64,000 nucleotides of DNA from Patescibacteria group bacterium (lineage in GTDB: Bacteria; Patescibacteriota; JABMPQ01; JAHIRA01): the NCBI GenBank assembly GCA_018818205.1, contig JAHISJ010000013.1:16661-80660 (forward strand). The letters are read 5' to 3'. The notes below the pieces were generated by a model. The model was given only the letters and a program-made list of their open reading frames with translations, was not told where the DNA came from and searched no databases. The position numbers and the translations under genes are program-made. Below are positions 3,976-61,388 of this stretch, in pieces. The stretch's first letter is position 1. The number at the start of each line of letters is the position of its first letter.

Positions 3976-5235
3976 ATGAGAAAACGTGCGCTTGATTTTT
4001 ATGCGTGTCCGGCGTGTAAGACGTTTCCACTGTTTCTTTCACATGATAGAGATGAGGTGATATTCAATAATCTCTTAGATGTCGCGGCAGAAACATATCA
4101 ATGCAAGCAGTATTGTAGCCGTAATCGTCGGATGGTAAATAGCCAGGACGATGCATATGCACTCGGATGTAAGAAATGCCATGAAGAGCAGGTTAAAACA
4201 GCAACGCTTACCTGCAAAAAATGTGGCTATGTTTTTTGTATAGAAAACTTTCTTCCAAACTTTAGACTAGATCATGCTAAAAAGCATAGCAGCGATCATT
4301 GCGAGTCACTGGGGAAAGGCGTTGTTCAGAAGCATGAATCGTTTTATACAAGGGCAGAGCAGGAAAAGGAACTGTATAGAAGAGTTAAAGCACTTTTACC
4401 TTTTAGCAGAGCAAAAAAACCTCGAGCAAAAAAGAATATGGAGGACGATCTTGAGTATCGGTCTAAATATCCTGAGAAAGATAAATATATTCCGGTTTTT
4501 GAGGAATATCTGTCAAAAAAACCTGTATACACTCTAGAGCTCGGTATTGGTCAAGGTGGGTTTACCTCGAGCGTTAAGAAGTTTTTTAAACCTGCAGTGT
4601 CATTTGGCCTAGACTATGAGCCTAAATGGGCAGAGATTGCGTGGATTCGTGATCCGGAAACAGAAGTGCTTACAGCAGACGCGCGTAAACTTCCCTTTAG
4701 AGATAGTTCAATCGATTTAGTATTTTCTGCATATACACTTGAACACATTGTAAACGTTGATCCAGTCATTCATGAAACAGCGCGTGTTGCTGATGAAGCA
4801 TTTTTAGTATTTGGCCCCAGCAAATGGTCTCTTTACGACGTTCATTTTGAAAAGGCGCCGCTTGTGCCACTCTTACCTGCGTTTTTAGCAAAGCGTCTTG
4901 CGTACTTGTGGAAGGTTAAGAAGGTTGGATTTAATTATGCACAGGGTGAAATATTTGATGAGTATGCTACAATGAACTACATACGACCGTCCTACTTTGA
5001 GAGACTTGCTCACAAGGCTGGTTTTAAACCTGTTCCGTTACTAAAAGAACAGCTTACTGAGTCGTTTAAGGAGGCGTATCAGTACCATTCAATTATGAAG
5101 GTTGTACAGAAGTTTGGCTTTATAGTACTTCCCATTGTTTCTTTGGTGGAGAAGATGAAGCTACAACCGTTTATGGTCTACTTTTTAAAAAAAGAAAAAG
5201 CAACGATAGTTGAAAAAAAGAAAGCAAAAAAGTAA
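3976..5235 (+). CDS. Trm112-like zinc-ribbon fused to a class I SAM-dependent methyltransferase
   Basis: N-terminal FYACPACK...LTCKKCGYVFCIENFLPNF matches the Trm112 CPxC...CxxC...IP pattern. Methyltransferase motif I LELGIGQGGF and motif II DLVFSAYTLEHI follow. Confidence 0.6.
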   Translation: MRKRALDFYACPACKTFPLFLSHDRDEVIFNNLLDVAAETYQCKQYCSRNRRMVNSQDDAYALGCKKCHEEQVKTATLTCKKCGYVFCIENFLPNFRLDHAKKHSSDHCESLGKGVVQKHESFYTRAEQEKELYRRVKALLPFSRAKKPRAKKNMEDDLEYRSKYPEKDKYIPVFEEYLSKKPVYTLELGIGQGGFTSSVKKFFKPAVSFGLDYEPKWAEIAWIRDPETEVLTADARKLPFRDSSIDLVFSAYTLEHIVNVDPVIHETARVADEAFLVFGPSKWSLYDVHFEKAPLVPLLPAFLAKRLAYLWKVKKVGFNYAQGEIFDEYATMNYIRPSYFERLAHKAGFKPVPLLKEQLTESFKEAYQYHSIMKVVQKFGFIVLPIVSLVEKMKLQPFMVYFLKKEKATIVEKKKAKK

Positions 5236-5242
5236 TATACAT

Positions 5243-5581
5243 ATGTCAAAGGACATTGACATGAAAAATGAGTACGAAGATGAATCGGATGACAGTTATG
5301 AATACGATGATTATGATGAGGATGAGATAAACGAGTTCTTGGAGAACGAAGAGGAGGAGGGGAAGTCTTTTGATGTAGTAAGAGCTGAAGTTCACGAGGT
5401 ACTTGCTCGCTATTTTGAAAAGAACGAAGTTCCCTTTGCTTGGGAGGCAAAGATTTTGCTAGATAATGTTGCTCAGGCTATTCACGATCAATTTGCGACA
5501 CATGAAGAAGATATTACCAAGTTGTACGAGGAGGTAGATCGGTTGAAGATGAGGGATAGAGAGAAGGATTCTAGGAAATAG
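5243..5581 (+). CDS. hypothetical highly acidic protein (DE-rich N-terminus)
   Basis: ORF with start moved to 5243 to avoid overlap with the upstream gene. Followed by a strong intrinsic terminator. Confidence 0.45.
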   Translation: MSKDIDMKNEYEDESDDSYEYDDYDEDEINEFLENEEEEGKSFDVVRAEVHEVLARYFEKNEVPFAWEAKILLDNVAQAIHDQFATHEEDITKLYEEVDRLKMRDREKDSRK

Positions 5582-5602: not shown

Positions 5603-5638
5603 AAAAATACGATCGAATGATCGTATTTTTTTTGTTTG
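5603..5638. terminator. bidirectional rho-independent terminator (8-bp stem atacgatc/gatcgtat, loop gaat, A-run before and T-run after)
   Basis: Hairpin 5607-5626 flanked by aaaa and ttttttttt; lies between convergent genes. Confidence 0.6.
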
Positions 5639-5646
5639 TATTTTAT

Positions 5647-5755
5647 ATGTCATCCCGGACAGTTTTTCCGAAAACTGATCCGGGATCTCGTTGAGTGCAG
5701 CATTAGAAACGAGATCCCGGATATCCACTTAAGAAAGTGAATTCCGAGATGACAT
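5647..5755. repeat. structured palindromic element (closing stem atgtcatc/gatgacat enclosing three hairpins); its core is about 85% identical to the perfect palindrome at 62541-62588
   Basis: Core gtcatcccggacagtttttccgaaaactgatccgggat compared with gtcatcccggatcagtctttccgaagactgatccgggat. Second hairpin gggatctcgtt/aacgagatccc (11 bp). Confidence 0.5.
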
Positions 5756-5805: not shown

Positions 5806-8800
5806 TTATCTATCTCCCGCAACATCAATGCCACCACGATGTTCTTTAGCAAATGCATAGAAGTTGACCGCAATTGCTTTACCGTTTGCTTCAAATGCAC
5901 GAACTTGTGGGGTACCGCCATTCCCAGCACCGGTAATGACTTCGTCAATGCCATTATTATCAAGATCAGCAGTAGTAACGTGTGCCCCGACGGGGAAGTT
6001 ACCATATGCTTTCCATTCACCCACAACTGTTTTTTGGTTGTTATATCTATACACTTTTACCCACGCATGCGCGTGACCGGATTGTGCGGCGACAATCTCA
6101 TCCTTGCCGTCACCATCAGCGTCGCCTGCAGCAACGGAGATACCGTCTCTATATAATGGATGAAAGGCAAAGAATTGCATGGGGCGCCTGATCCCATTTC
6201 CTTCGTATACTCTAATTAATGGTCCGCCGCCTTTTCCTGCACCTACAATAATCTCATCTTGTCCATCGTTATCAATATCGCCAGCGGCAACATCTGCACC
6301 ACATTGCACTTTTCCAAAAACGTTGAAGTTTGCTAGTACCGTTTTATTTGTGTCTGCTTTATACACTTTTACCCATGCTTCTCCGTCTGATTTTTGTGAG
6401 ACAATAATTTCTGCTTTTCCATCACCATCTACATCACCACCGGCAACGTCAACGCCCCCTCTAAAGTTTGGATGAAAGGGGAAGAAGTTCATTATTTCTT
6501 TTCCTTCATGATCAAAAACACGAACATGCGGCCCACCTCCCGGACCTGCGCCAGTTATAATGTCTTTGTGACCATCTCCGTTTACGTCCGCATAGGCAAC
6601 CGAGACGCCTCCTCTAAAGTTTTTATTATATGCCAAGAAACTTAGGTTAGTAGGAACACCAGATTTATCAAAGGTTTTAACATGCGGATTGCCTCCGGAA
6701 AGCGCTGAAGTGACTATTTTTGTTTCTCTGTCTTTAGCTTTCCTTGGCGGATCTTCAGTAATATCGGTTGTTTTTGGTGCAAATAGTGATTGAGATTGCT
6801 CATTTGAGGGTTCTTCATTTTGTGGTTCATTTTGTGGTTCATTTTGTGGAACTGAAGGCGTTGTTGGATTCGGTTCAGCTAGTGTGGGTATGGGTTCTGT
6901 ATCGGGTGTTTCTTCAGGGGTTAGAGTAATATCAAGTTCAAGTATCGTTACTGAATGAGGGGGAAACGAGTAAGAAAATAGTGGCCCGACATTACTGATT
7001 GAACTTTGCTTGATGGTAACATCGATATAGTTTTCATTGTTTGCCCCAAGAGCATATCCATCTAAAGTATATACTTTTGCTGAAGACCCAGGTGCCGCAT
7101 TCTTGATTTTAATTGAGGTCTGCATTGATGCAAGCTCATGCTTGTTGATACCTGCAATGTACAGTTTCTTGTCACTGGCGTCGCGTGATGCGTAAGAAGT
7201 AAAGTAAGGGGCATCTGAAAGCCCAGGAAGAGAGTCAAGTTCATCCACCGAGTAAACAGGTACGTCAAACAAGTTAACCGGAAGCATAATATCACCAAAG
7301 TGTTCAGAGAAGAGAGATAATGCAAGTGCAGATGGCCGTGCGTTTAAATTATCTGTAAATGCGTGCCAATGTGAATCGCTACTACCGAGTGCATGAAACT
7401 GAGCACGCTCGACATCGTTTTTGGCAGCTTCTGCTAAAAGTTCTGACGTTGCAATACCAAATGCAAGACTCTTTCCTTTGTCTGAGTCGTGCGTGTTGAA
7501 TTCTGTGAGTAACACTTCTATTGATCCTGCTTTGCTGGGCGCATAGTGTCTTAACAAATCTCTCGTTTGCTCAACCTGTCCTTTTGATCCATTGTTGTAC
7601 GATGACTTAAAAGCATTTCCCCAAGAGTAGGGGCTTGCAAGGAGTTGTTGGTTAGATACGTGCGTACCGCCTTCTGTGGGCATGTAGTAGTGTAGAACGA
7701 TAAAGTCAAGATCGTGTGCCGCGGTTTGTAACACATCTCTATCCCAATCAGAAAAGCCAACAAGGAGCGACGCACCAACTTTTATTGTGGGATCGACTGC
7801 TTTCATGGCTTTGGCATATTCTTTGATCTGTTCGCCGTACGTGGCTCCGGGCATGTGATTGTCGCCATATGCCCATATTTCGTTTCCAAGCTCAAAATAT
7901 TCTATGTTGAGCTTTTTGTTCTTATTTAAATCATAGACCAACTGTGCCGCATCTTCCGGTGTTCCCCGGAGATTAACGGTTACCTGTGGTTTGAGACTAG
8001 CATCCTTTGCTGTTTGTAGCTGGCCCTCAAAATCCATTACTTCCCATGGATTATTGGATGAGAAGGGGTGTGGATATGCGCTTTGCCACATAAACCTATA
8101 CCCTGAAAGCGGATCTTTGTGCCTAAAAGCAATACCCATAAAGCCTCTTTCATATGCATGTGCAGCGGCACCACGGATGGTTGCTTTGACACTATAGTTT
8201 TTCCAGCCCTGCTCGCCAACTTTCTTAAGTGAGAGGCTTTGCTGGCCTACATGATGATACGCACCATCTTTGTGTTCCCAGGTTCCATTGTCAAACCATG
8301 AGGGGAATCCATCATTATTCCATGCAGGCGAAATGCCGGCATCAAAATTGTCCTCAAAGAGGGGATTTTCGTATTCGTCTAGGATTTGAACGTTATCAAA
8401 ATACACTTCTTGATTAAAACTTGAATATAATCCGACTTCCCCCTCTGAAAATGCGCTGTCGGTTATATCAAAGATTTGCTGTCCATCAATGTATAATCGG
8501 TAATTATTACCATGCACGACAATTTCAACGCTGTAGTTTTTATTATATTCATATGGGACATTGTCACTTGCGAGTACATTCCATACACCATTGTCTACTT
8601 TTGCTATAAAACGCTTACCGGGGTCGTATGGCGCTGCAAGGCGTATTGATTCAGCGGGATAGTCTCTTAGTGTGCTACTTAAATCAGCGTTATGTACAAA
8701 TTCTGAACTGACGCTGTATCCATAGAGATTGGGGTTGATGCTACTTGTTGCGTTTAAGGCATCTACAGTCATTTTGGGACTAAAACTCTGTCCGACGGAC

Positions 8801-8928
8801 TCAATAATAGTTGATATTACAACAAGAATCGCAATTAATGCGATTACCTTAGAAAATCTTACCACTTGAGAAAATAGAAACCGTGGTGTTTTGTTTGCTC
8901 TTTTTAGAAAAGAGGTTCTTCTCTTCAT
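5806..8928 (-). CDS. membrane-anchored multidomain surface protein: concanavalin/LamG-like lectin domains, clan GH-A glycoside hydrolase, Pro/Gln/Glu-rich linker, C-terminal FG-GAP/VCBS beta-propeller repeats
   Basis: N-terminal TM segment. ELGNE acid/base-like motif and LTEFN nucleophile-like motif. PQNEPQNEPQNE linker. At least 5 repeats of the type DxDGDGxxDIIxGAGxGGGPxVRVF. Confidence 0.75.
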   Translation of the reverse strand: MKRRTSFLKRANKTPRFLFSQVVRFSKVIALIAILVVISTIIESVGQSFSPKMTVDALNATSSINPNLYGYSVSSEFVHNADLSSTLRDYPAESIRLAAPYDPGKRFIAKVDNGVWNVLASDNVPYEYNKNYSVEIVVHGNNYRLYIDGQQIFDITDSAFSEGEVGLYSSFNQEVYFDNVQILDEYENPLFEDNFDAGISPAWNNDGFPSWFDNGTWEHKDGAYHHVGQQSLSLKKVGEQGWKNYSVKATIRGAAAHAYERGFMGIAFRHKDPLSGYRFMWQSAYPHPFSSNNPWEVMDFEGQLQTAKDASLKPQVTVNLRGTPEDAAQLVYDLNKNKKLNIEYFELGNEIWAYGDNHMPGATYGEQIKEYAKAMKAVDPTIKVGASLLVGFSDWDRDVLQTAAHDLDFIVLHYYMPTEGGTHVSNQQLLASPYSWGNAFKSSYNNGSKGQVEQTRDLLRHYAPSKAGSIEVLLTEFNTHDSDKGKSLAFGIATSELLAEAAKNDVERAQFHALGSSDSHWHAFTDNLNARPSALALSLFSEHFGDIMLPVNLFDVPVYSVDELDSLPGLSDAPYFTSYASRDASDKKLYIAGINKHELASMQTSIKIKNAAPGSSAKVYTLDGYALGANNENYIDVTIKQSSISNVGPLFSYSFPPHSVTILELDITLTPEETPDTEPIPTLAEPNPTTPSVPQNEPQNEPQNEEPSNEQSQSLFAPKTTDITEDPPRKAKDRETKIVTSALSGGNPHVKTFDKSGVPTNLSFLAYNKNFRGGVSVAYADVNGDGHKDIITGAGPGGGPHVRVFDHEGKEIMNFFPFHPNFRGGVDVAGGDVDGDGKAEIIVSQKSDGEAWVKVYKADTNKTVLANFNVFGKVQCGADVAAGDIDNDGQDEIIVGAGKGGGPLIRVYEGNGIRRPMQFFAFHPLYRDGISVAAGDADGDGKDEIVAAQSGHAHAWVKVYRYNNQKTVVGEWKAYGNFPVGAHVTTADLDNNGIDEVITGAGNGGTPQVRAFEANGKAIAVNFYAFAKEHRGGIDVAGDR
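6814..6849. repeat. perfect 12-nt tandem repeat (ttcattttgtgg x3) encoding the PQNE repeats of the linker in the 5806-8928 gene
   Basis: Direct inspection; in-frame, so copy number can change by slippage without frameshift. Confidence 0.8.
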
Positions 8929-9132: not shown

Positions 9133-10290
9133 ATGAAGATAGCATTCATCGGACAAAAAGGACTTCCTGCCAAGCAGGGAGGAGTAGAAAAGCATGTTCA
9201 TGAGCTTGCAGTTAGACTTGCAAACAACGGACATGATGTTTTTGCGTATTCCAGAAAGAGCTATACTAATACTGATAATACTACATTTCAAGGAGTAACA
9301 CTCAAATATCTTCCGTCAATTGCGACAAAAAACTTTGATGCTATTTCCCATTCATTACTTGCAGCACTTGATGTGCTTAGACAAGATTATGATATTGTTC
9401 ACTTCCACGGTGTTGGTCCATCACTTGTTTCTTTTATTCCAAGACTTCTTAAAAGACGAACCAAAGTTGTTGCAACATTTCATTGTCGTGATCAGTTTCA
9501 TCAGAAATGGGGCATGATTGCGAGGGCATTTCTTTCTTTTGGTGAGTATGCTATTAATAAGTTCCCACATAAAACTATAGCTGTCTCTAAGATTCTACGT
9601 CAGTACTGCAGTGAAAAGTATGGAAGTGAAGCAGCATATGTCCCCAATGGATGTGCAATTACTGATACTGACAAGGCGTCAATGCTTCCTCTCTTTAATA
9701 TTAAGAAAGGTAAGTATATTCTTGCCGTATCAAGACTCGTGAAGCATAAAGGTTTGCATTATTTGATTGATGCGTTTAAAGAGCTAAACGATCCTGAACT
9801 CAAATTGGTGATTGTTGGTGATACCAGTTATACTGACGAATATGTCTCACTACTTAAAGAGCGTGCTCAAGGTGATAATCGTATCGTTTTTGCTGGTCTT
9901 CAGACCGGTGAGGCGCTTGCACAACTCTTTAAGAATGCACGTTTGTACGTGCATCCATCTGAGGCAGAAGGTCTTCCTATCACTGTACTTGAAGCACTCA
10001 AATACGGTATTCCATCAATTGTCAGTAATATTCCTGAAAATATTGAGGCTTCTGGTGGCTACATCTATGTCTTTAAAAATAAAGAGCCCTTAGATCTTGC
10101 AAAGAAGATGAAGCTTGTCTTGGATCATCCAAACGAGGTTTCCGAGCTTGCAAAGGCCGGTCAAAAGTATGTCTCAATTACGTATGATTGGGACAGGATT
10201 ACTGAAACTATTGAGTCGATTTATGAAGACTTACTTGAGGATGTCCGTGAAGACGTAGCTTACGAGCGAGAAGTTCCTTTGGTAAGATAA
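9133..10290 (+). CDS. glycosyltransferase family 4
   Basis: C-terminal SEAEGLPITVLEALKYGIP (EX7E); N-terminal Rossmann-like MKIAFIG...GGVE. Confidence 0.8.
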   Translation: MKIAFIGQKGLPAKQGGVEKHVHELAVRLANNGHDVFAYSRKSYTNTDNTTFQGVTLKYLPSIATKNFDAISHSLLAALDVLRQDYDIVHFHGVGPSLVSFIPRLLKRRTKVVATFHCRDQFHQKWGMIARAFLSFGEYAINKFPHKTIAVSKILRQYCSEKYGSEAAYVPNGCAITDTDKASMLPLFNIKKGKYILAVSRLVKHKGLHYLIDAFKELNDPELKLVIVGDTSYTDEYVSLLKERAQGDNRIVFAGLQTGEALAQLFKNARLYVHPSEAEGLPITVLEALKYGIPSIVSNIPENIEASGGYIYVFKNKEPLDLAKKMKLVLDHPNEVSELAKAGQKYVSITYDWDRITETIESIYEDLLEDVREDVAYEREVPLVR

Positions 10291-10312
10291 AAAAAGTAAA
10301 AGCAAATAGTAT

Positions 10313-10342
10313 AAAACAGCTCCAATGGGGCTGTTTTTGTTT
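10313..10342 (+). terminator. rho-independent terminator (stem aacagctcc/ggggctgtt with T-run)
   Basis: Hairpin followed by tttttgtttg, just after the stop codon of the 9133 gene. Confidence 0.5.
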
Positions 10343-10432
10343 GTGTGTATTAGTAAGCTGTTGATAGCGCCTATTTACTTTTAAGCTAAAATATGCTTAA
10401 ATAAAACAGTCTATAAAGTAACAATCAAAGCA

Positions 10433-10960
10433 ATGATTGATGGTGTTAAAATAAAACAAATGAAGGTCTGGGAGGATATTCCTGATACTCCAGAAGAAGA
10501 GAATCAAAAGAAAGGGTTTCTCATGGAGGTCTTGAGGTCAGACGAGGACCTACTCAAGAAGTATGGACAAACAACGTTTACTGTTGCATACAAGGACACT
10601 ATAAAAGCATTCCATTGGCATAAAAAGCAAGATGATTTGTGGTTCATTGGCAGCGGTAAAGCAGTGATCGTACTTCATGACATGCGTGAAGAGTCACCGA
10701 CATTTGGAGAAACGCAGGAAATTTTTGCAGGAGAAGGGGACTATAAGCTTGTTTTGATTCCCGTTGGGGTTGCTCACGGATATAAAGCACTGAGCGAAGA
10801 ACCGGTTCTTCTTTTTTATCACACAACAGAAGCCTACAATCCAGAAAATCCCGACGAAGAACGAATCCCCTACAATGATCCAAAAATTGACTATGACTGG
10901 AAACAGGACTTTGGAGCTAAGGAAGCAGAGGTTGCCCAGGTAGATGAAAAGGAGGCGTAA
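10433..10960 (+). CDS. rmlC: dTDP-4-dehydrorhamnose 3,5-epimerase (cupin)
   Basis: Matches RmlC motifs: FHWH..., MREESPTFGE, IPVGVAHGY. Confidence 0.7.
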   Translation: MIDGVKIKQMKVWEDIPDTPEEENQKKGFLMEVLRSDEDLLKKYGQTTFTVAYKDTIKAFHWHKKQDDLWFIGSGKAVIVLHDMREESPTFGETQEIFAGEGDYKLVLIPVGVAHGYKALSEEPVLLFYHTTEAYNPENPDEERIPYNDPKIDYDWKQDFGAKEAEVAQVDEKEA

Positions 10961-10968
10961 GGGAAAAC

Positions 10969-11376
10969 ATGGAAGACTGTATCTTTTGCAAAATTGTAAA
11001 CGGTGATGTGCTGTCATCAAAGATATACGAAGACGATGCGTTTCTTGCATTCCTAGACATTGCACCAGTGCATCCCGGACATATCCTAGTTATTCCAAAA
11101 GAACACTACCCGCTTCTTACCAACGTTCCCGAAGAAATCCTCCAGAAATATCTTATTGTAGTCCAAAAAGTATCTCGTGCGCTCGTTGATGGTTTGGAGC
11201 TTAACGGGTTTAACTTGGGAATGAATAATGGTTCTGTCGCAGGGCAGATTGTCCCTCATGTTCATTTTCATGTTATGCCACGCACAGAAGGCGATGGGCT
11301 GAAGCTTTGGTCGCAGCGCAGTTATGCAGAAGGGGAGGCAGATGAGGTGGCAGGGAAGATTAAAGATGCGTTGTAG
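10969..11376 (+). CDS. HIT-family (histidine triad) nucleotide hydrolase/transferase
   Basis: CIFCKI..., canonical HVHFHVMPR histidine triad. Confidence 0.8.
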   Translation: MEDCIFCKIVNGDVLSSKIYEDDAFLAFLDIAPVHPGHILVIPKEHYPLLTNVPEEILQKYLIVVQKVSRALVDGLELNGFNLGMNNGSVAGQIVPHVHFHVMPRTEGDGLKLWSQRSYAEGEADEVAGKIKDAL

Positions 11377-11437
11377 TATCAGTCTTTCTAAGGTTATACT
11401 CGAAGGTTGTTAGTAAAAATTAATTTAAGTAGGTAGT

Positions 11438-12451
11438 ATGAAAATACTTGTCACAGGAGGTTTGGGATTCATTGGGAGTAACTTTGTCAGGTATGTTCTA
11501 AAAAAGTATCCTGAGTACGAAGTAGTTAATCTAGATAAGATGACGTATGCAGGGAATCCAGAGAATCTCAGGGATATTGAGGAGGATGCTCGCTATCATT
11601 TTTATAAGGGGGATATTTGTGATAGTGCTATTGTAGATACTATTTTCTCTGATCATGCTATAGACGCAATTATAAATTTTGCTGCGGAGTCACATGTTGA
11701 CAGGTCCATTGAAGATCCCGGTGCATTTATTCAAACGGATGTGTATGGCACGTTTGTTTTGCTTGAAGCAGTAAAGAAACATGGTGTTAAGCGGTACATT
11801 CAAATTAGCACGGACGAGGTGTATGGCGATTTTGATGACGGGGGATTTGCAACAGAGGAGTCGTCACTTGAACCATCAAGCCCCTACTCTGCTTCAAAAA
11901 CAGGAGGTGATTTACAGGTTATTGCTGCACGTAGAACGTACGATCTTCCCGTAATGATTACGCGGTGTACCAATAATTATGGGCCATACATGTATCCAGA
12001 AAAGCTCATTCCCCTATTTGTCACTAATTTGATTGAAGGGAAGAAGGTGCCGGTGTATGGTGCAGGTGATCAAATACGGGATTGGCTCTACGTTGATGAT
12101 CATTGTAGTGCTATAGATCTTGTACTTCACAAAGGTGAGTTGGGAGAGATTTACAATGTAGCTGCAAATCAAGACCCTGAAGTCACCAATCTGGAGCTCA
12201 CTAAAAGAATCCTTGAAGTGCTAAAGATGGGGGAAGAGATGATTGAGTATGTTAAAGATCGCCCCGGACATGATAAGCGCTATGCTGTTGATTGCAGCAA
12301 GATTAAGTTACTAGGATGGAAGGTTGAGACACCTCTTAAGGAAGGACTAGAAAAAACAGTACAGTGGTATGTTGACCATGAAGATTGGTGGAAGAAGATT
12401 AAGACAGGAGAGTATTTAGAATTTTATAAGAGACAGTACGAAGAACGTTAA
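11438..12451 (+). CDS. rmlB: dTDP-glucose 4,6-dehydratase
   Basis: [22 protein letters not shown], extended SDR with RmlB-type length and motifs. Confidence 0.9.
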   Translation: MKILVTGGLGFIGSNFVRYVLKKYPEYEVVNLDKMTYAGNPENLRDIEEDARYHFYKGDICDSAIVDTIFSDHAIDAIINFAAESHVDRSIEDPGAFIQTDVYGTFVLLEAVKKHGVKRYIQISTDEVYGDFDDGGFATEESSLEPSSPYSASKTGGDLQVIAARRTYDLPVMITRCTNNYGPYMYPEKLIPLFVTNLIEGKKVPVYGAGDQIRDWLYVDDHCSAIDLVLHKGELGEIYNVAANQDPEVTNLELTKRILEVLKMGEEMIEYVKDRPGHDKRYAVDCSKIKLLGWKVETPLKEGLEKTVQWYVDHEDWWKKIKTGEYLEFYKRQYEER

Positions 12452-12487: not shown

Positions 12488-13360
12488 ATGCGAAAAAACA
12501 CTCAAATAGCAAAAAAGATAGCTATTACCGGATCAGAGGGTATGCTCGGCCATGATCTAAAAAAGGTTTTTGGGAGCGATAAAAAGTATGCACTTGTTTT
12601 GTATACAAAAAAAACTCTCGATATCACTGACGAAAAAAAAGTCCTTCAAAAATTAGAAAAAGATAAACCTGATATTATAATTAACGCTGCAGCGTTTACT
12701 GCGGTTGACGATTGTGAGGATAAAAAGCACAAAAAAGCATGTATTGCAGTAAACGGTGTGGGTCCAAAAAATGTTGCAAAAGCGGCAAAGAAGATTGGCG
12801 CGATTCTTGTCCAGATAAGTACTGATTATGTCTTTGATGGAAAGAAAAAAAGTGGGTATACTGAAAGATCGCGAGTGGGTCCTATTAATACGTATGGAAA
12901 GTCAAAGCTTATGGGTGAAGAAACGGTTAAAAAAGAGTGCACTAAGTTTTATATTGTGCGCACATCATGGCTTTTTGGCAAGAATGGACCTAATTTTGTT
13001 GAGACCATGCTTATGCTTGGCAAAAAACATCCAGAGCTTAAAGTGGTGCATGATCAGCATGGTAAACCAACGTGGACGTATGATTTAGCTTTGCATATCA
13101 AGAAACTTCTTGAGCGAAATAAAGCATTTGGAGTGTATCACTGTACCAATGAAGGTGAAACAACATGGTATAATTTTACCCGAGAGATTTTGAAACAAGC
13201 AAAGATTAAAACGCCGGTAAAGCCGTGTACATCTGAAGAGTTTCCACGGCCTGCAAAACGTCCCGAGTATTCCACGCTACTCAATACCAAGTTTTCGCGA
13301 ATGCCACATTGGAAAAAGGCGCTTACAGGATATTTAAAGGATCGAAAGAAGAAAGCATAA
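12488..13360 (+). CDS. rmlD: dTDP-4-dehydrorhamnose reductase
   Basis: IAITGSEGMLGHDL, YGKSK, RTSWLFG; RmlD-typical architecture of about 290 aa. Confidence 0.85.
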   Translation: MRKNTQIAKKIAITGSEGMLGHDLKKVFGSDKKYALVLYTKKTLDITDEKKVLQKLEKDKPDIIINAAAFTAVDDCEDKKHKKACIAVNGVGPKNVAKAAKKIGAILVQISTDYVFDGKKKSGYTERSRVGPINTYGKSKLMGEETVKKECTKFYIVRTSWLFGKNGPNFVETMLMLGKKHPELKVVHDQHGKPTWTYDLALHIKKLLERNKAFGVYHCTNEGETTWYNFTREILKQAKIKTPVKPCTSEEFPRPAKRPEYSTLLNTKFSRMPHWKKALTGYLKDRKKKA

Positions 13361-15990: not shown

Positions 15991-16797
15991 ATGACTAAAA
16001 AAATACAGGTTCAAGGTGTTGAAATTTCTATCATTTCTAAAAATGAAGATGATTTTATATCTTTAACCAATATGTTAAAAGCAAAAGATGGTGATTTTTA
16101 TATTTCAGATTGGTTAAGAAATAGAAATACGGTTGAATTTCTTGGTGTTTGGGAAAAAATAAATAATCCCAATTTTAATTATGGCGAGTTCGCCATAATT
16201 AAAAGTAAGGCAGGCTTAAATAGTTATAAAATAAGTGTTAAGGAATGGGTTAAAAAGACTCATGCTATTGGGTTACGATCAGTGGCTGGTCGATACGGCG
16301 GAACATATGCTCACAAAGATATTGCTTTTGAATTTGGAATGTGGATTAGCCCAGAATTTAAAATCTATCTTATCAAAGAGTTCCAAAGACTTAAAGAAGA
16401 AGAAAATGAACGTTTATTCCTTGGTTGGGATGCGAAACGAACACTAACAAAAATAAATTATAAAATTCACACAGACGCTATAAAGAAACATATTATTCCA
16501 ACTTTAGTTACCAAGAAACAAATAGATTTTGTTTACGCGAATGAAGCAGATGTCCTGAATGTCGCTCTTTTTGGAATGACCGCAAAAGAATGGACGGATA
16601 AAAACGTGAAACTAAAAGGAAATATGCGAGATTATGCTAATGTTGTACAATTAGTGTGTTTAGCGAATTTAGAGAGTATGAATGCGGAATTTATCAGACA
16701 AGAGCTTTCGCAATCAGAGAGATTGCAAAGACTAAATAAAATCGCGCTTGTTCAGATGAAGTCTCTTGCTAAAAGTGAAAGTATTAAGAAATTTTAA
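15991..16797 (+). CDS. KilA-N domain-containing protein (phage/mobile-element-associated DNA-binding family)
   Basis: KIQVQGVEISIISKNEDDFISLTNM...FYISDWLRNRNTVEFLGVWE...YGGTYAHKDIAFEFGMWISPEFKIYLIKEFQRLK matches the conserved bacterial KilA-N family. The gene is markedly more AT-rich than its neighbours. Confidence 0.6.
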   Translation: MTKKIQVQGVEISIISKNEDDFISLTNMLKAKDGDFYISDWLRNRNTVEFLGVWEKINNPNFNYGEFAIIKSKAGLNSYKISVKEWVKKTHAIGLRSVAGRYGGTYAHKDIAFEFGMWISPEFKIYLIKEFQRLKEEENERLFLGWDAKRTLTKINYKIHTDAIKKHIIPTLVTKKQIDFVYANEADVLNVALFGMTAKEWTDKNVKLKGNMRDYANVVQLVCLANLESMNAEFIRQELSQSERLQRLNKIALVQMKSLAKSESIKKF

Positions 16798-21183: not shown

Positions 21184-22130
21184 GAGTTCTTGTTACCGGA
21201 GTTGCTGGGTTTATAGGGAGTCATGTTGCGGGGAATCTTTTAGAACGTGGCGACACGGTTGTTGGTGTTGATAACTTTTGTGACTACTATGATCCGCAGA
21301 TAAAAAAGAGGAATATTAGAGAGTTGGAATCGAATGAGCGTTTTACATTGTACCAAGAGGACGTTGAGGATTATCTACACATAAAGCTTATATTTGAGGA
21401 AGAAAAGCCGGATAAAGTTGTTCATCTTGCTGCGAGAGCAGGTGTTAGAGCCTCTATTGAGGATCCGCTTACCTATTCTCATGTAAATAATATTGGCACC
21501 TCAACCTTACTTGAGATGTCCCGGGTGTTCGATGTACAAAATTTTGTGTTTGCGTCTTCTTCTTCCGTGTATGGGAATAATACAAAGGTGCCGTTTTCAG
21601 AAAAAGATTCCGTCGATTTTCCTATTTCTCCGTATGCTGCAACCAAAAAGGCCGGTGAGTTACTCTGTCATGTATATAGTCATCTGCATAATCTTCCCTG
21701 TACGTGCCTTAGGTTCTTTACAGTGTATGGACCAAAGGGAAGACCGGATATGGCGCCATACAAGTTTGTTAAGGTGGTTTCTGAGGGTACTGAGCTTACG
21801 AAGTTTGGTGATGGTACTACCAGTAGAGATTATACGTATATTGATGATATCGTAGATGGTGTGGTTTCGGCAGTTGATGCTAATCTTCAGTATGAGATAA
21901 TCAATCTTGGAAATTCTCAAACGGTGACCCTAAATCAGTTTATTGACGTTGTGGAAAGGCTTATAGACAAGCAGGCACACATTGTTCAGATGCCAATACC
22001 ACCTGGAGATGTAGAGCGTACGTATGCGGATATTTCTCGGGCTAAAGAACTTTTGGGGTATAATCCAATTACCAAGTTTGAAGATGGAATGGAGAAGTTT
22101 GTTGAGTGGTATTTAGAAGAGAGAGTGTAG
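21180..22130 (+). CDS. NAD-dependent epimerase, UDP-glucuronate 4-epimerase-like
   Basis: MRVLVTGVAGFIGSHV...VGVDNFCDYYD, YAATK; ATGA overlap with ugd. Confidence 0.65.
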   Translation: MRVLVTGVAGFIGSHVAGNLLERGDTVVGVDNFCDYYDPQIKKRNIRELESNERFTLYQEDVEDYLHIKLIFEEEKPDKVVHLAARAGVRASIEDPLTYSHVNNIGTSTLLEMSRVFDVQNFVFASSSSVYGNNTKVPFSEKDSVDFPISPYAATKKAGELLCHVYSHLHNLPCTCLRFFTVYGPKGRPDMAPYKFVKVVSEGTELTKFGDGTTSRDYTYIDDIVDGVVSAVDANLQYEIINLGNSQTVTLNQFIDVVERLIDKQAHIVQMPIPPGDVERTYADISRAKELLGYNPITKFEDGMEKFVEWYLEERV

Positions 22131-22142
22131 TGTTTCTAAATT

Positions 22143-22207
22143 ATCAATGATCAATTCTCATTTTTCTGACAGAATTAAGTGTTGAAAATTGGTAATTGAT
22201 CATTGAT
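22143..22207. promoter_or_regulatory. long AT-rich inverted repeat (atcaatgatcaatt ... aattgatcattgat, 14-bp perfect arms) between the UDP-sugar operon and gmd
   Basis: Direct inspection; additional inner complementarity (cattttt/gaaaatt). Confidence 0.35.
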
Positions 22208-22229
22208 CATTTCAAGATGACTAACATAA

Positions 22230-23231
<1,002 letters not shown>

Positions 23232-33584: not shown

Positions 33585-34342
33585 AGAATAAAATAAAGAT
33601 AATTATTGTAGGAGCAGGGGAGGCTGGTTCTCTTATTTCAAAGAATATTTATGATGATAAAAACTCTCCTTTTGAACTTGTAGGCTTTGTTGATGATGAT
33701 TTGAAGAAGAAAGAAAAAAAGATTAATGGGAAAAAGGTTTTGGGGGAGCTTAAAAATCTGAAAGAATTAATTGATGAGTTTTCAATAAAAGAATTGCTTA
33801 TAGCTATGCCCTCCGGACGCGGTGATGTCATTCGGAAGGTTCTGGATTGCACTAAAGATAGGCGGGTTCGGTATAAAATAATTCCCAGAAGTACCAAGGT
33901 GTTGATACAGGACTTTGGCGAGAGCTATCTTAAACATATCCGAGATGTATCGGTTGAAGATTTGCTTGGAGGTGAGATTGTAAAATCTGAACTTAAGGTA
34001 ATTGGAAAATATCTCAAGAATAAATGCATATTGATAACCGGTGCGGCAGGGTCAATTGGCTCTGAGCTTGCACGGCAAGTTGCCGCTTTTAGCAATGCTA
34101 AAAAGGTTATTTTGTTTGATTGGTCAGAAAACGGTATGTTCTTGTTGCAAAATGATATTCAGGGGAGCTATCCGAACCATCCCGTTGAGTTTGTTATTGG
34201 TGATATTAAAGATAAACAAAGATTGAATTATATTTTTGACACTTTTTCTCCTGATCTTGTGTTTCATGCTGCAGTGTATAAGCACGTACCTTTAATCTCT
34301 CCAGGGGTTCTATCCCCCGCCGCTTGCGGCGTGATATACTAG
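33581..34342 (+). pseudogene. 5' fragment of a CapD/PglF/WbpM-like NDP-sugar 4,6-dehydratase, truncated at the IS200 left end
   Basis: ILITGAAGSIGSELARQV...FHAAVYKHVPL, then the reading frame runs into the IS left end and stops; about half the expected length. Confidence 0.6.
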
Positions 34343-34825
34343 AGCTATGAGCACATATGTACATAAAAGTCATAATGTAAGCGTGTTACTGTATCACCTG
34401 GTATTTCCTGCAAAGTATCGTCGTGTGGTTATCGATGCACAGGTAGATGAAATTATCAAAGAAACATGCTTGGAAATTGCACAGAGGTACGAAGTACATT
34501 TCCTTGAAATAGGTACAGACAAGAACCACATACATCTGTTGGTACAAAGTGTTCCCACATACACGGTGACCAAACTTGTTACGATGATAAAAAATATTAC
34601 AGCCAGACACGTTTTCAACCAATGTCCCGATGTGAAAAAACAACTTTGGGGTGGAGAATTCTGGTCAGACGGATACTTTGCAAGTACGGTAAGTAAACAC
34701 GGAAATGAAGATATGATATCAAATTATGTAAAAAAGCAGAGAGAAGAGTACACAAAGCTACACAATAATCATCAACTTCGGTTATTCTAGCGGATACCCC
34801 GTCCGCTTGCGGCGGGGTAGTTTAT
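34300..34825 (+). mobile_element. IS200/IS605-family insertion sequence (tnpA only) with subterminal hairpins at both ends
   Basis: Left-end hairpin ccgccgcttgcggcg (about 34317-34331). Right-end hairpin ccccgtccgcttgcggcgggg (34797-34817). Y1 transposase gene between them. Confidence 0.75.
34347..34790 (+). CDS. tnpA: IS200/IS605 family transposase TnpA (HUH Y1)
   Basis: HUH motif HIHLLV, catalytic Tyr in SDGYFASTV; 147 aa. Confidence 0.85.
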   Translation: MSTYVHKSHNVSVLLYHLVFPAKYRRVVIDAQVDEIIKETCLEIAQRYEVHFLEIGTDKNHIHLLVQSVPTYTVTKLVTMIKNITARHVFNQCPDVKKQLWGGEFWSDGYFASTVSKHGNEDMISNYVKKQREEYTKLHNNHQLRLF

Positions 34826-34882
34826 TCTACATATAGGCCAGAATTTAACTATCTGACAATATCCAAATGGAATGAACGTGAA

Positions 34883-35467
34883 TTGGAAAATCATGGCTAT
34901 AGCTCAACTATTGCTTCTCCTGGAATAAACCAGGAAGTTTATAAATGTTATGATGACGTAGGAAGAAGAGATGATTTACTTCTTTCTGTTGGCTGGTCAC
35001 ATTACTTAAAGAATTTAGATTATCTTTTAGATGGGTGGAGAGGAATGAAAACCAAGCCGAAATTAGAGCTTTTTAGAATTGAGCCTCGTCTAGGTAAGAA
35101 GAATGGTGTAAAGTATTATTACAAACCAAATGATATTCAAGTGGCACGCTTGTATAACAGGGCAACCGTTTTTGCTCAAACTTCGCTTCATGAAGGGTTT
35201 TGTTTACCGATTCTTGAGGCTATGGCATGTGGATGTCCAGTTGTTTGTACGGATGCAGATGGCAATTTGGATTTTTGTGTTGATGGTAAGAATTGTTTAA
35301 TAGTTGCAAAAGATGATGTTAATGCTTTAACTGGTGCTCTTGAATCTTTGCTTAGAGATGAAGGCTTGAGAGAGAGACTTTCTCGAGAAGGGAAGAGAAC
35401 GGCTGAGAAATATGTGTGGGATATGCAAAATACTTTACTTGAAGCGTTTATGTATGATCTCAAATAG
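34883..35467 (+). pseudogene. 3' fragment of a GT4 glycosyltransferase (C-terminal half only), fused in frame to the IS right end
   Basis: [19 protein letters not shown] (EX7E) present but the N-terminal Rossmann half is absent. The open frame extends upstream into the IS right-end hairpin. Confidence 0.6.
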
Positions 35468-35514: not shown

Positions 35515-36492
35515 ATGGAGATAGTAAAGAAAAAAACACTTATTTCAGTAGTCATTCCTGTATATGGCTGTTATTCATGCTTAGAAGAGCTTTGCAATAG
35601 GATCAATAAAGTTTTTAAGCTTAAAATGCCAGACACTGAATATGAAGTTCTGCTCGTCAATGATGCTAGCCCAGATGAATCTTGGAAAAAAATTGAGGAA
35701 TTGGCTAAAATAGATAAACGTATTATGGGGATAAGTTTATCAAGGAATTTTGGACAGCATAGAGCAATCACAGCAGGTCTTGACTTTTCAGGTGGGGATT
35801 GGGTTGTTGTGATGGATTGTGACTTACAGGACCCTCCTGAAGAGATTGCAAGACTTTACAATGAAGCTCTTATGGGCTATGACATAGTGATGGGGAGGAG
35901 AAGTGTTCGGATAGATTCGTTTTTCAAAAAGGTATCATCAAAGCTTTTTCATTTGATTCATAATTGGCTGTCTGGTACAAAAACTGATCCAGATGTTGCA
36001 AATTTTTGTATTTGCTCGAGAAAAGTGGTTAATGCTATTAAGAAAATTCGAGAGCAAAGCAGATTTTTCCCAAGTTTACTACAATGGGTTGGATTCAAGA
36101 AAACATACATAGATATAAACCATGCGAAGAGAAGAGAAGGAAAGTCGTCGTATAGTTTGAGAAAGTTGATTAGCTTAGCCATTGAAGATATTGTTGCATT
36201 TTCTAATAAGCCTCTCAAAATGGCAGTCTATTTTGGTTTCTTTGTTTCTCTTTTTTCTTTCTCTTATGCGTTTTATTTAGTCGTAAGGTATATATTTTTT
36301 AGCTTTTCTGTTGAGGGTTGGACAAGCGTTATTGTTTCGATATGGCTTGCGACTGGTTTAATCATTATGATTGCTGGTATTGTTGGAATTTATGTTAGTA
36401 GAATCTTTGATGAGGTTAAAGGGAGGCCCATTTATATAGTTAAAGATACTACTGAAAATAGAACAATAGAGCGTGATTTACTTGTTGAATAA
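35515..36492 (+). CDS. GT2 polyprenol-phosphate aminosugar/hexose transferase (ArnC/GtrB-like) with two C-terminal TM helices
   Basis: ISVVIPVYG...LLVNDASPDES...GQHRAITAGL...VVMDCDLQDPPEEI. Confidence 0.75.
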   Translation: MEIVKKKTLISVVIPVYGCYSCLEELCNRINKVFKLKMPDTEYEVLLVNDASPDESWKKIEELAKIDKRIMGISLSRNFGQHRAITAGLDFSGGDWVVVMDCDLQDPPEEIARLYNEALMGYDIVMGRRSVRIDSFFKKVSSKLFHLIHNWLSGTKTDPDVANFCICSRKVVNAIKKIREQSRFFPSLLQWVGFKKTYIDINHAKRREGKSSYSLRKLISLAIEDIVAFSNKPLKMAVYFGFFVSLFSFSYAFYLVVRYIFFSFSVEGWTSVIVSIWLATGLIIMIAGIVGIYVSRIFDEVKGRPIYIVKDTTENRTIERDLLVE

Positions 36493-36591
36493 AAGTTTAC
36501 TAATTTCTATATTATAATAAATTTGTGTATATGGTAGAGTTTATTGCATGATTATCCATTCTGTTAGTTAACAATACGATTTGTATCAGAA

Positions 36592-36963
36592 ATGAACGCT
36601 ATATTATTTATCATTCTTACAATAATTTTCACGGTTTCAAGTCAGCTTCTCTTAAAATGGAGAGTTACAGCTATAATTGAGGAACATGGGCTATTAGAAA
36701 GTAAAGTTAGTATTATCTCTAAAACATTATTGGACCCATTAGCTCTTTTAGCTTTGTTTTTTGCCTTTGTTGCATCATTGTCTTGGATATTAGCACTTTC
36801 GAAAAAAATTGAACTAAGTATTGCTTATCCTTTAACAAGCATGAGTTTTGTATTAGTCTTTATATTTTCGATAGCTGTCTTTAACGAGTCTTTTAGTATA
36901 TTTAAGGTTATTGGTCTTCTCATAATCATAACAGGGGTAGTTTTTTTAAGTTTTAGTTTATGA
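36592..36963 (+). CDS. small 4-TM DMT/SMR-like protein, ArnE/ArnF-like lipid-linked sugar flippase subunit candidate
   Basis: C-terminal IAYPLTSMSFVLVFIFSIAVFNESFSIFKVIGLLIIITGVVFL aligns with the ArnE IAYPMLSLNFVWV...GGIVIL region. Confidence 0.6.
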   Translation: MNAILFIILTIIFTVSSQLLLKWRVTAIIEEHGLLESKVSIISKTLLDPLALLALFFAFVASLSWILALSKKIELSIAYPLTSMSFVLVFIFSIAVFNESFSIFKVIGLLIIITGVVFLSFSL

Positions 36964-37415
36964 TAGTTTTCCCAAAGTGCTTAATGAAAATAGAAACTGA
37001 TAAAAAGTGTGAACACATTTTATTTCGAGATGGCGTATATTATTTTGATAAAGATAAGTCCAAAGATTATCTAGAAGCGTTTGATCCTCGTTCATTTAAG
37101 GCTCTTTGTAACGCTGAAACGACACATTTTTGGTTTCAACAGAGAAAAAAATAAGAGCGAATATTTTTGTAGAGTATATTCCTAAGGAAAGTTCTGTACT
37201 TGAAATAGGTGCAGGAACAGGTATCATTACAAAAGAAATAAGAAATCCTGGATACTATTTCAGCAGCAGATATACATGGAGAGTCGCTTAAGCTCTAAAA
37301 CAAGTTAAAATAGGAAAAATCTCTAATACAATGTTAAATATTGTTACAAAAGCAGAAGAAGGGTTGACTCGATTTAAGCTGCCATTCGGAAGTAGCATAT
37401 TAATTATTGCCCAAA
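36960..37415 (+). pseudogene. degraded class I SAM-dependent methyltransferase (frameshift in an A7 run plus internal loss)
   Basis: ...THFWFQQRKK then a frame change at agagaaaaaaataag, continuing ...EYIPKESSVLEIGAGTGIITKEI (motif I) followed by a stop. A separate C-terminal remnant ends at 37415. Confidence 0.5.
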
Positions 37416-37419
37416 AAAA

Positions 37420-38568
37420 ATGATTCCTTTCAATATTCCTACTTTTTTAGGTAAAGAAAAAAGTTATCTATTAGATGCTATTGATAAATTAAAGCTTTGT
37501 GGCGATGGTTCTTACACAAAGAAGTGTCAAGAGCTAATGGAAAAAAAATTTCATTGTAAAAAGGTTTTACTGACAACTTCTTGCTCTCATGCTTTGGATA
37601 TGTCAGCTATCCTTATTGATGTAAAGGAGGGCGATGAAGTTATAATGCCTTCGTACACCTTTGTTTCAACTGCAAATGCTTTTGTGTTAAGGGGCGCTAA
37701 AGTTGTGTTTGTTGACATTCGGCCCGATACTATGAATATTGATGAAAACCTAATAGAAGAGGCAATTACAGAAAAGACTAAGGCTATTGTAGTTGTTCAC
37801 TATGCAGGGGTAGGTTGTGAAATGGACACAATTATTGATATTGGAAAAAAATATAATTTGAAAGTGATTGAAGACGCTGCTCAAGGAGTAAATGCAAAAT
37901 ACAATGGGAAGTATTTAGGAACAATAGGAGACATTGGGTGTTATAGTTTCCACGAGACTAAGAATTATACTTGTGGAGAAGGTGGAGCTCTTTTGCTTAA
38001 TGATGAGCAAATGATTGAAAGGGCTGAGATTATTAGAGAAAAAGGTACTAATAGAGCGAAGTTTTTTAGAGGGCAGGTTGATAAATACTCATGGGTTGAT
38101 ATAGGTTCATCTTTTTTGCCTAGTGAGTTGAATGCAGCTTATCTCTTGGCACAATTGGAAGATATCGAAAAAGTAAACGAACGTCGATTATCTATTTGGA
38201 ATATGTATCGTAAGAAACTCAATTTACTTGATCAAAATATTCACATTGAATTCCCATTCATTCCTAGCTCCTGCAAGCAAAATGGACACATGTTTTATAT
38301 TAAGGTTAAAGATTTAACTGAAAGACAGAATTTAATAGATTTTTTAAAAAATAGAGACATAATGACTGTTTTTCATTATATTCCTTTACATTCTTCTAAA
38401 GCAGGGAAAAAAAATGGAAGATTTTTTGGGAAGGAAATTTATACTACTAAGGAGAGCGAGAAACTGTTGCGTTTGCCGATGTTTTATAGTCTATGCGAAG
38501 AAGATATTGATTATGTCTCAAGTGAAATAATAAATTATTATAAGCAAAATGATCTTTCAATATCTTAA
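37420..38568 (+). CDS. wecE: DegT/DnrJ/EryC1-family PLP aminotransferase, dTDP-4-keto-6-deoxyhexose 4-transaminase (WecE-like)
   Basis: MIPFNIPTF...KLCGDGSYTKKCQELMEKKF...EVIMPSYTFVSTANAFVLRGAKVVFVDIRPDTMNIDE...SFHETKNYTCGEGGALLLND closely parallels E. coli WecE. Confidence 0.75.
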   Translation: MIPFNIPTFLGKEKSYLLDAIDKLKLCGDGSYTKKCQELMEKKFHCKKVLLTTSCSHALDMSAILIDVKEGDEVIMPSYTFVSTANAFVLRGAKVVFVDIRPDTMNIDENLIEEAITEKTKAIVVVHYAGVGCEMDTIIDIGKKYNLKVIEDAAQGVNAKYNGKYLGTIGDIGCYSFHETKNYTCGEGGALLLNDEQMIERAEIIREKGTNRAKFFRGQVDKYSWVDIGSSFLPSELNAAYLLAQLEDIEKVNERRLSIWNMYRKKLNLLDQNIHIEFPFIPSSCKQNGHMFYIKVKDLTERQNLIDFLKNRDIMTVFHYIPLHSSKAGKKNGRFFGKEIYTTKESEKLLRLPMFYSLCEEDIDYVSSEIINYYKQNDLSIS

Positions 38569-41936: not shown

Positions 41937-41981
41937 AATCTCCTCCTCTTGAGGTGTAAAAGGGTTCAAAGTTTGCGCTTT

Positions 41982-42010
41982 ATTATGGAACGTTTTGCCG
42001 AAAAAAGCAA
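41982..42010 (-). promoter_or_regulatory. candidate promoter TTGCTT-17-CATAAT for the 40056-41936 gene
   Basis: Reverse-complement inspection; about 45 nt upstream of the start codon. Confidence 0.35.
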
Positions 42011-42047
42011 GTCCTTTTGGTAATGTGCACACACATATGGCGGTTTT

Positions 42048-61380: not shown

Positions 61381-61388
61381 GGCTTCTC

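Follow-up and report, generated by a model that had tools for sequence, protein, structure and literature searches.

The closest described relatives of the element that concerns us here, a 109-nt palindromic sequence (copy 1, positions 5647-5755) in a 64,000-nt stretch of DNA from a Patescibacteria group bacterium (GenBank assembly GCA_018818205.1, contig JAHISJ010000013.1, positions 16,661-80,660 of the forward strand; hereafter the window), are the CGTC-tagged repetitive extragenic palindromes (REPs), and above all family CGTC-1 among them, which were described as a superfamily by Di Nocera, De Gregorio & Rocco (2013, BMC Genomics 14:522; PMC3733652). These REPs are headed by the tag CGTC, or by its variants TGTC (frequent) or CCTC, and have complementary A-T residues at stem positions 1 and 2, a stem of 8-9 bp, a loop of 4-5 nt (longer in a few genera) and a 3-nt tail that is mostly CCA (PMC3733652). 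Heads-out (HH) dimers, with the tags outside, predominate, heterodimers are frequent, and the spacers of 20-100 bp often have complementary ends; the repeats lie between convergent or unidirectional open reading frames (ORFs), mainly in Alphaproteobacteria and in five phyla in all, and have no associated transposase (PMC3733652). The superfamily includes dRS3 of Neisseria (family CGTC-1) and RPE-4 and RPE-6 of Rickettsia, and a Wolbachia family, CGTC-4, has been described (PMC3733652). Copy 1, together with a second copy towards the other end of the window and a third a short way outside it, very probably belongs to this superfamily as an interspersed REP with the TGTC variant of the tag.

Copy 1 had originally been predicted to consist of an outer stem enclosing three hairpins, and this architecture is borne out: the outer stem (ATGTCATC/GATGACAT) is evident both from the sequence and from an inverted-repeat search, and the minimum free energy structure places three hairpins within it. 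Folded as RNA, copy 1 reaches -53.9 kcal/mol (+ strand; z -7.7) and -58.8 kcal/mol (- strand; z -9.8), and folded as DNA -34.2 and -36.7 kcal/mol (z -10.7 and -11.5; matched by 0 of 200 shuffles), so that z lies at about -8 to -11 overall. As judged from its sequence, copy 1 is a heads-out heterodimer, in which two TGTC-tagged REP units, with their tags outward, are separated by a 27-nt hairpin spacer. Its units and copy 2 have a common plan (TGTC, AT, CCCGGA, a variable helix with a 4-nt loop, (A)TCCGGG and AT), to which the dimer units add a 3-nt tail. Unit A (5648-5689, + strand; covariance-model match of 67.4 bits, E 1e-17, with alignment and pair counts in agreement) comprises the tag TGTC (5648-5651), AT (5652-5653), the conserved stem base CCCGGA (5654-5659), the variable arm CAGTTTT-TCCG-AAAACTG (5660-5677), a bulged A (5678), TCCGGG plus AT (5679-5686) and the tail CTC (5687-5689). 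Unit B (5711-5754, - strand; covariance-model match of 64.5 bits, a - strand fold, and a one-mismatch pattern match at 5743-5753) reads, on the - strand, TGTC-AT-CTCGGA-ATTCACTT-TCTT-AAGTGGAT-A-TCCGGG-AT-CTC, so that the complement of its tag, GACA, stands at 5751-5754; it has a T.G wobble in its conserved base and a second in its arm, both of which would be G.U-compatible if the - strand were transcribed. The A-T clamp is formed in unit A by pairing of AT at 5652-5653 with AT at 5685-5686, and likewise in unit B and copy 2 (in an alignment of seven units, the two clamp columns are AU in 6/7 and UA in 7/7).

The spacer of copy 1 (5687-5713) is itself structured, with CTCGTT and AACGAG on either side of a 15-nt loop, and together with the flanking 9-mers ATCCGGGAT and ATCCCGGAT it makes up a central helix of 15 bp (5678-5692 with 5708-5722) that is 100% complementary and appears in the folds. 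The two 9-mers occur four times in copy 1 in alternating orientation, and two folds are therefore open to the DNA: three hairpins in succession, or a four-way junction, which has an outer stem of 12-13 bp. Similar spacers, reversed in orientation, occur in the third copy and in a metagenome stretch (L220) discussed below.

Copy 2 (62543-62586) is a symmetric single unit with TGTC on both strands (TGTC at 62543-62546, GACA at 62583-62586), which the covariance model matches on both strands (56.1 and 45 bits). It reads TGTC-AT-CCCGGA-TCAGTCTT-TCCG-AAGACTGA-TCCGGG-AT-GACA, and accounts for nearly all of the palindrome at 62541-62588, which is perfect, as had been claimed, with a 22-bp stem and a 4-nt loop; an inverted-repeat search extended this to an imperfect palindrome at 62533-62596 with 30-nt arms that are 90% complementary. 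Between unit A (TGTCATCCCGGA-CAGTTTTTCCGAAAACTGATCCGGGAT) and copy 2 there are two differences, an indel and a compensated change of T:A to C:G, and the copy 2 helix TCAGTCTT/AAGACTGA is of the same type as the unit A helix CAGTTTT/AAAACTG; about 38 of 41 aligned positions agree by manual count, and the earlier estimate of about 85% identity over the first 40 nt was thus fair or conservative. Allowing up to one mismatch, the 11-mer GTCATCCCGGA occurs four times in the window, always at copies 1 and 2, where 0.35 occurrences would be expected (shuffles reaching four, 0/100).

On the 82,950-bp contig to which the window belongs (ENA ERZ27247128 k141_365028), there is a third full copy (L121, 1399-1504), about 4.6 kb ahead of the first window position. 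Its junctions are identical to those of copy 1 and its spacer is similar and oppositely oriented, while both its helices are unrelated; the unit covariance model recovered both of its units in L230. The same model, run with filters off, found only copies 1 and 2 in the 64-kb window (the next match had 10 bits, E 1.7), and when about 76 kb of the contig (G+C content of the source, 36%) was scanned for patterns, tagged heads were found at three sites only. At 61472-61480 there is a lone junction 9-mer, ATCCCGGAT (in 61380-61598; about 0.25 expected, as estimated from base composition), with neither tag nor hairpin nearby, which may be a chance occurrence or a remnant. An independent short-read contig of the same strain (Logan SRR6514274_100234, our L122, whose end corresponds to L121 position 11761) breaks inside copy 1, which is consistent with assembler confusion at a repeat or palindrome. 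Where they overlap, in the copy 2 region (with the same arrangement) and in the genes upstream of copy 1, the two independent assemblies agree base for base.

How do these three copies compare with the repeats already described? With the CGTC REPs (PMC3733652) they share the tag, the A-T clamp, an 8-bp conserved stem base, an intergenic position and the lack of a transposase, and copy 1 and the third copy are, in addition, tags-out heterodimers with a 27-nt spacer whose ends (CTCGTT/AACGAG) pair, their units having a 3-nt tail that reads CTC. Copy 2 differs in being a double-tagged, symmetric solo unit. Interspersed palindromic repeats of this kind are known, and the element is an ordinary one; mildly new are its long-armed form and its host group, the Patescibacteria, which are not named in the article text of PMC3733652. 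The REP-encoded peptides DPGLRRDD and WTPDQVRGD given in the supplement of that article would, by back-translation, be compatible with units of the type ATCCCGG...CCGGGATGAC.

In Neisseria, NIMEs consist of a variable repeat between inverted 20-bp dRS3 units, like the unit-spacer-unit organisation seen here, and are found near genes for surface structures. However, the dRS3 consensus is ATTCCC-N8-GGGAAT rather than ATCCCGGA...TCCGGGAT, dRS3 has an interacting phage recombinase, and NIMEs occur in long arrays whereas the sites in the window are isolated. (Third hairpins that are dRS3-like were seen in some of the related loci described below, e.g. L052.) RPE-4 and RPE-6 of Rickettsia and CGTC-4 of Wolbachia also belong to the CGTC superfamily (PMC3733652) and reside in low-G+C, reduced genomes, but they are often found in frame inside protein-coding genes, whereas the three contig copies are intergenic, and the stems differ. 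The GTAG REPs, BIMEs and REPINs of E. coli and Pseudomonas resemble our elements in combining an unpaired tag with a hairpin, in forming inverted doublets that fold together, in lacking target-site duplications and in lying in gene 3' regions, and by analogy with their RAYT system they may also share recognition as single-stranded DNA hairpins. Identity with GTAG REPs or REPINs was nevertheless rejected on account of the tag (TGTC/CGTC, not GTAG) and of the unlike halves of the dimer, REPIN halves being nearly identical; nor has a RAYT gene flanked by CGTC units been reported in the literature. A link to Bru-RS1/2, palindromes of about 105 bp in Rhizobiales, was also considered and was dropped, CGTC repeats being missing from Brucellaceae (PMC3733652).

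The original prediction had recommended a search for further copies, and apart from the third copy on the contig this revealed matches across phyla. Reference genomes and viral contigs were scanned with the pattern GTCATCCCGGA-N8-38-TCCGGGAT, and the matches listed include more than 120 reference-genome stretches. A rough estimate, assuming uniform base composition, puts the chance expectation for this pattern in the genome collection at about 130; the matches are nevertheless not attributable to chance, because among those listed nearly all the interiors are hairpins, and because in 85 of the 148 units the next 110 nt contain ...CCSGGATGAC, which the pattern did not demand and which completes the three-hairpin plan. 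The hosts, again among the matches listed, are mostly Alphaproteobacteria (Bosea, Ancylobacter, Rhodomicrobium, Caulobacter and others), and also include Coxiellaceae and other Gammaproteobacteria, Saccharibacteria, Parcubacteria and other Patescibacteria, Omnitrophota, Bacteroidota, Balneolaceae and Cryomorphaceae; a range of several phyla in which Alphaproteobacteria prevail is likewise a feature of the CGTC superfamily (PMC3733652). The element was also present in 43 viral-contig stretches. Many of the viral matches (L124-L161) share head-tail structural genes resembling alphaproteobacterial gene transfer agent (GTA) clusters, with REP dimers in the intergenic gaps, and this we attribute to the content of the viral collection rather than to a link with phages. 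A reciprocal scan that used only the central part of the element (ATCCGGGATCTC...GAGATCCCGGA) found 58 metagenome stretches, in 48 of which both of the undemanded outer heads were present, and in four of which there was one; one stretch, L220 (42% G+C), has spacer and loop motifs in common with the window copies.

Dimers in the related loci are almost all of the tags-out type, with spacers of 25-70 nt, and the CCA tail is common in the alphaproteobacterial ones. On crude gene calls, convergent contexts outnumber divergent ones by 39:1 for dimer units and by 11:3 for solo units, and the tag of solo units between co-directional genes is antisense in 19 cases and sense in five (loci L001-L165), a bias that could reflect the direction of transcription or of replication. 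In one locus (L053, 7324-7798 and 967-1256), three minimal units (GTCATCCCGGAAGGTTTTAATCCGGGAT) lie upstream of an rRNA operon amid CACTG-rich short repeats, and a group II intron is situated past the 5S rRNA gene at the other end of the operon.

What, in these elements, has been conserved? In an alignment of 26 sequences, conservation is 90% or more at the four junction motifs but not in the helices, and there is covariation at the base of the spacer hairpin (CG in 10, UA in 10 and GC in five sequences). In seven low-G+C units, pairing holds in 93% of cells, both sides have changed in 7 of the 16 pairs, and the covariation score was reached by 0 of 500 shuffles, so the covariation check proposed with the original prediction did find compensated changes. 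Helices are mosaic between copies, different arms being combined among Bosea and related loci, and their composition follows that of the host (A+T-rich here, G+C-rich in Bosea). Three-hairpin elements were detected by folding, since a gapless scanner matched almost nothing because of the bulged A carried by the units.

Compensated arm changes and very stable folds are also what would be seen in a structured non-coding RNA, either a cloverleaf small RNA or a cis-regulatory element of a 3' or 5' untranslated region (UTR), that depended on the four-way-junction fold. A small structured RNA was among the original suggestions, and it gains something from the position of the family mostly downstream of genes, from the argument that many REPs act as RNA (PMC3733652), and from the non-Watson-Crick positions of copy 1, which would be compatible with G.U pairing on the - strand only (sense for the neighbouring FG-GAP gene, with no terminator in between). 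The consensus, however, is symmetric under reverse complementation, a four-way junction being formed on both strands in 42 of 66 elements. Where 25 elements lie between co-directional genes, the antisense strand folds better in 16 and the sense strand in nine, and G:U pairs are rare (42 vs 56) and without sense-strand bias; there is no sign of RNA-level selection on the sense strand. The same unit is found solo and in dimers, and in convergent, divergent and unidirectional contexts, it is absent from syntenic relatives, and from our reading of the loop list the loops are not of the GNRA or UNCG types, the common stable RNA tetraloops. Rfam 15 at gathering thresholds gave no match in the window and none at the elements in 18 related loci, a permissive Rfam search around copy 1 gave only chance-level matches (E 0.3 or worse), and a search of papers for the literal element sequences gave only primers and unrelated matches. 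A dedicated structured RNA is therefore disfavoured, and we regard it as improbable.

The loops themselves differ between strands. Of 93 triloops on the tagged strand, 62 are of the C-GNA-G type, and the complementary C-TNC-G is absent among the 25 commonest loop types of that strand; C-GNA-G triloops are an exceptionally stable type of DNA mini-hairpin. In the lineage of the window the tagged-strand loops are TCCG, TCTT or TCTG. Such strand-specific loops, with the tag, point to recognition of the units as single-stranded DNA hairpins.

Relatives of the organism provide a view of the same site in the absence of the element. Gene order on both sides of copy 1 is preserved in three of them (L166, L168 and L169), in 57 kb of which the unit covariance model found no match, so that copy 1 is a lineage-specific addition. 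The orthologous convergent gap in L166 (57% identity) contains a 35-bp bidirectional terminator alone, and in L168 (about 13030-13180) and L169 (about 13085-13220) it contains other long palindromes, unrelated to copy 1. One of these is A/T-rich, with CGTAAAGCG-type repeats, and in the other, arms rich in G+C (CGTAGGGACGCCGCC...) enclose a centre of about 100 nt. The convergent gap seems to collect palindromic insertions within the lineage.

Copy 1 has convergent genes on either side (5210-5581, + strand, and the FG-GAP gene, 5806-8928, - strand), with a stop codon 52 nt away, and copy 2 has divergent ones (61598-62452, - strand, and 62688 onward, + strand), as originally stated; the neighbours of the third copy are also divergent. 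Might the elements then be plain transcription terminators or insulators, with hairpins under selection to halt or delay RNA polymerase whichever way it travels? The convergent setting of copy 1 and the enrichment of the family at gene 3' ends would fit such a role, and so would copy 2, which a terminator scan flagged as terminator-like on both strands (G+C-rich stem, T-rich flanks and tail). But the divergent setting of copy 2 and of the third copy leaves nothing to terminate, and copy 1, which was not flagged, has no T-run after it on either strand. The gap occupied by copy 1 has, moreover, a separate, canonical bidirectional intrinsic terminator at 5603-5638, outside the repeat (both strands; 12-bp stem, A-run before and T-run after), copy 1 being situated between this and the stop codon of the FG-GAP gene (5806). 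A 35-bp terminator suffices at the same site in relatives, and termination needs no tag or junction sequence conserved across phyla. The earlier opinion that a simple terminator role would be insufficient is upheld, and we find the terminator explanation very unlikely.

A more tempting idea, given that all three known copies are in a surface-glycan region and that units occur in both orientations, was that they are sites for site-specific recombination or phase variation, or hot spots that delimit or exchange glycan cassettes in the manner of the Neisseria dRS3/NIME arrays: dRS3 serves as an integration site for a filamentous phage recombinase, it has been proposed to promote exchange of adjacent surface genes, and in Thauera GTAG REP arrays flank exopolysaccharide genes (PMC3733652). 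The description of copies 1 and 2 as bracketing the glycan locus was, however, an over-reading, in that glycan genes are present beyond both of them (Wzy_C, GT2, GT4 and methyltransferase genes upstream of copy 1, and a Polysacc_synt flippase and a GT gene downstream of copy 2) and the third copy lies upstream of the window. Nor does a role in delimiting a glycan island fit with the unchanged gene order across copy 1 in the three element-free relatives, the identity of the two independent assemblies over their overlapping parts, or the dispersal of the family beside unrelated genes in many phyla. No recombinase, integrase or transposase domain was detected in the 47 window ORFs that reach 150 aa (Pfam; for 9133-11790 and 57821-58969 via precomputed matches), and no transposase or recombinase Pfam domain was found among the genes called on the contig flanks. 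We consider such a role highly improbable.

The least credible explanation, and one that can practically be discounted, is a classical miniature inverted-repeat transposable element (MITE), an insertion sequence reduced by deletion, which keeps terminal inverted repeats and is mobilised by the DDE transposase of the parent element, since despite a size of about 105 nt, inverted ends (TGTCATCCCGGA ... TCCGGGATGACA) and a multi-copy, intergenic distribution, the arms differ past the 12-nt head and recombine mosaically, solo units exist, and neither a full-length partner in the related loci nor a target-site duplication in the window copies or dozens of related copies was seen; of the MITE/REP-like mobile palindrome first suggested, the REP part stands, as a TGTC-tagged REP of the kind in PMC3733652, and the strict MITE part does not, for want of target-site duplication and of arms that are inverted copies.

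Assignment to the CGTC superfamily must also be weighed against several points that tell in the other direction. First, the stem ATCCCGGA/TCCGGGAT encloses 19-20 nt that form an extra 7-8-bp helix and a 4-nt loop, giving hairpins of 15-22 bp rather than 8-9 bp, which is why we file the elements as a variant of the superfamily and not as plain members of one of its four families; and each of the four dimer units of the contig has the tail CTC where CCA would be usual. Second, two of the three contig copies have a divergent context, unlike the family norm. Third, only the three sites are known in the organism (about 76 kb of one contig was examined), and genome-wide dispersal there is inferred; the relatives with an 'empty' site are distant (protein identity 51-60%), and no within-species polymorphism of filled and empty sites was seen, so that mobility is deduced from distribution alone. 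Fourth, the search for a candidate mobilising enzyme was negative: with E. coli RayT as the query, phmmer (E up to 10) detected no RAYT homologue among 4,612 ORFs in about 1.3 Mb of related loci, and no neighbour gene family recurs in the flanking loci. All-against-all clustering of these ORFs, from 165 related loci, returned as recurrent just the GTA-like phage-structure genes, a collection artefact, and ABC ATPases, and a search of the related loci for an autonomous partner (two heads-out units 0.3-4 kb apart around an ORF) gave nothing convincing. In the three contig copies and dozens of related copies there was no consistent target-site duplication or conserved flanking tetranucleotide.

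The elements, then, are repeated, lineage-specific insertions, of a family dispersed over many phyla, with a conserved tag and junctions, compensated arms, no coding capacity and no neighbouring enzyme. How might they have spread? With moderate confidence, we suggest that the units spread, now or formerly, as non-autonomous DNA by means of an enzyme acting in trans, which by analogy with the action of RAYT on GTAG REPs would read the tag and the base of a hairpin in single-stranded DNA; the CGTC REP family may be partly fossil. Copy 2 could most simply have been derived from a dimer. Because the sequence TCCGGGAT is directly repeated after the first and third hairpins of the dimer, a deletion between these repeats would yield exactly copy 2. 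Once inserted, the element would probably be largely neutral. Less confidently, copy 1 would be included on the - strand in the 3' UTR of the FG-GAP mRNA, where its stable fold could shield the message from 3' exonucleases and so stabilise it (the terminator itself being separate from copy 1); this is suggested because both non-Watson-Crick positions are G.U-compatible on that strand. No role is evident for copy 2 in its promoter region.

There are two extensions of this scheme. A dedicated enzyme, different from RAYT, could recognise tagged hairpins or four-way junctions and still be copying or maintaining the elements; this we think rather unlikely, and it is put forward because the head (TGTC-AT-CCCGG) and the self-palindromic 9-mer ATCCSGGAT are constant from Alphaproteobacteria of 70% G+C to a patescibacterial genome of 36% G+C, while the arms drift to the composition of the host and keep their pairing and strand-specific loops. 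In a weaker variant, by analogy with the proposal for Neisseria NIMEs, the repeats might serve as recombination substrates around surface-glycan genes.

The glycan region has other features of note. Within a run of sugar-nucleotide genes, an ORF at 15991-16797 has a KilA-N DNA-binding domain (E 7e-25), which is typical of phages and large DNA viruses; in the syntenic relatives an unknown ORF of about 459 aa is directly followed by an epimerase gene, and the KilA-N ORF thus looks inserted. Between 33581 and 37420, an ORF of 253 aa has only the start of a Polysacc_synt_2 domain and one of 194 aa only the C-terminal part of Glycos_transf_1; with these truncated-looking ORFs go unusually long non-coding gaps (34342-34883 and 36492-37420), which may indicate gene decay or the scar of a rearrangement. 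An imperfect inverted repeat at 22138-22212, in the gap 22130-22254, has TGATCA-rich 29-nt arms that are 86% complementary, and is unrelated to the REP units. Several large ORFs of the region are poorly assigned (40056-42101, 42399-45845, 54544-56142 and L121 1673-3076): a 681-aa protein has MopE-type Cu-binding motifs and a Laminin_G_3 domain, ORFs of 1148 and 532 aa have no Pfam match, and the 467-aa ORF adjoining the third copy has just weak or faint Pfam matches (DUF7107, Dickkopf_N).

Recognition of the palindromes as generic interspersed repeats, and not as boundaries or switches of the glycan locus, removes a tempting reading of this region. It also has a practical side, as the units break short-read assemblies and generate spurious small ORFs, and recognising them aids annotation. 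More generally, the CGTC/TGTC-tagged REP superfamily now also takes in the Patescibacteria, and a long-armed form whose helices change fast and with compensation. This sharpens a question dating from 2013, namely what it is that moves or maintains the transposase-less CGTC REPs, in that the very small gene set of the host narrows the candidates; and if there is indeed a dedicated enzyme, a patescibacterial genome of about 1 Mb would be an unusually small space in which to search for it.

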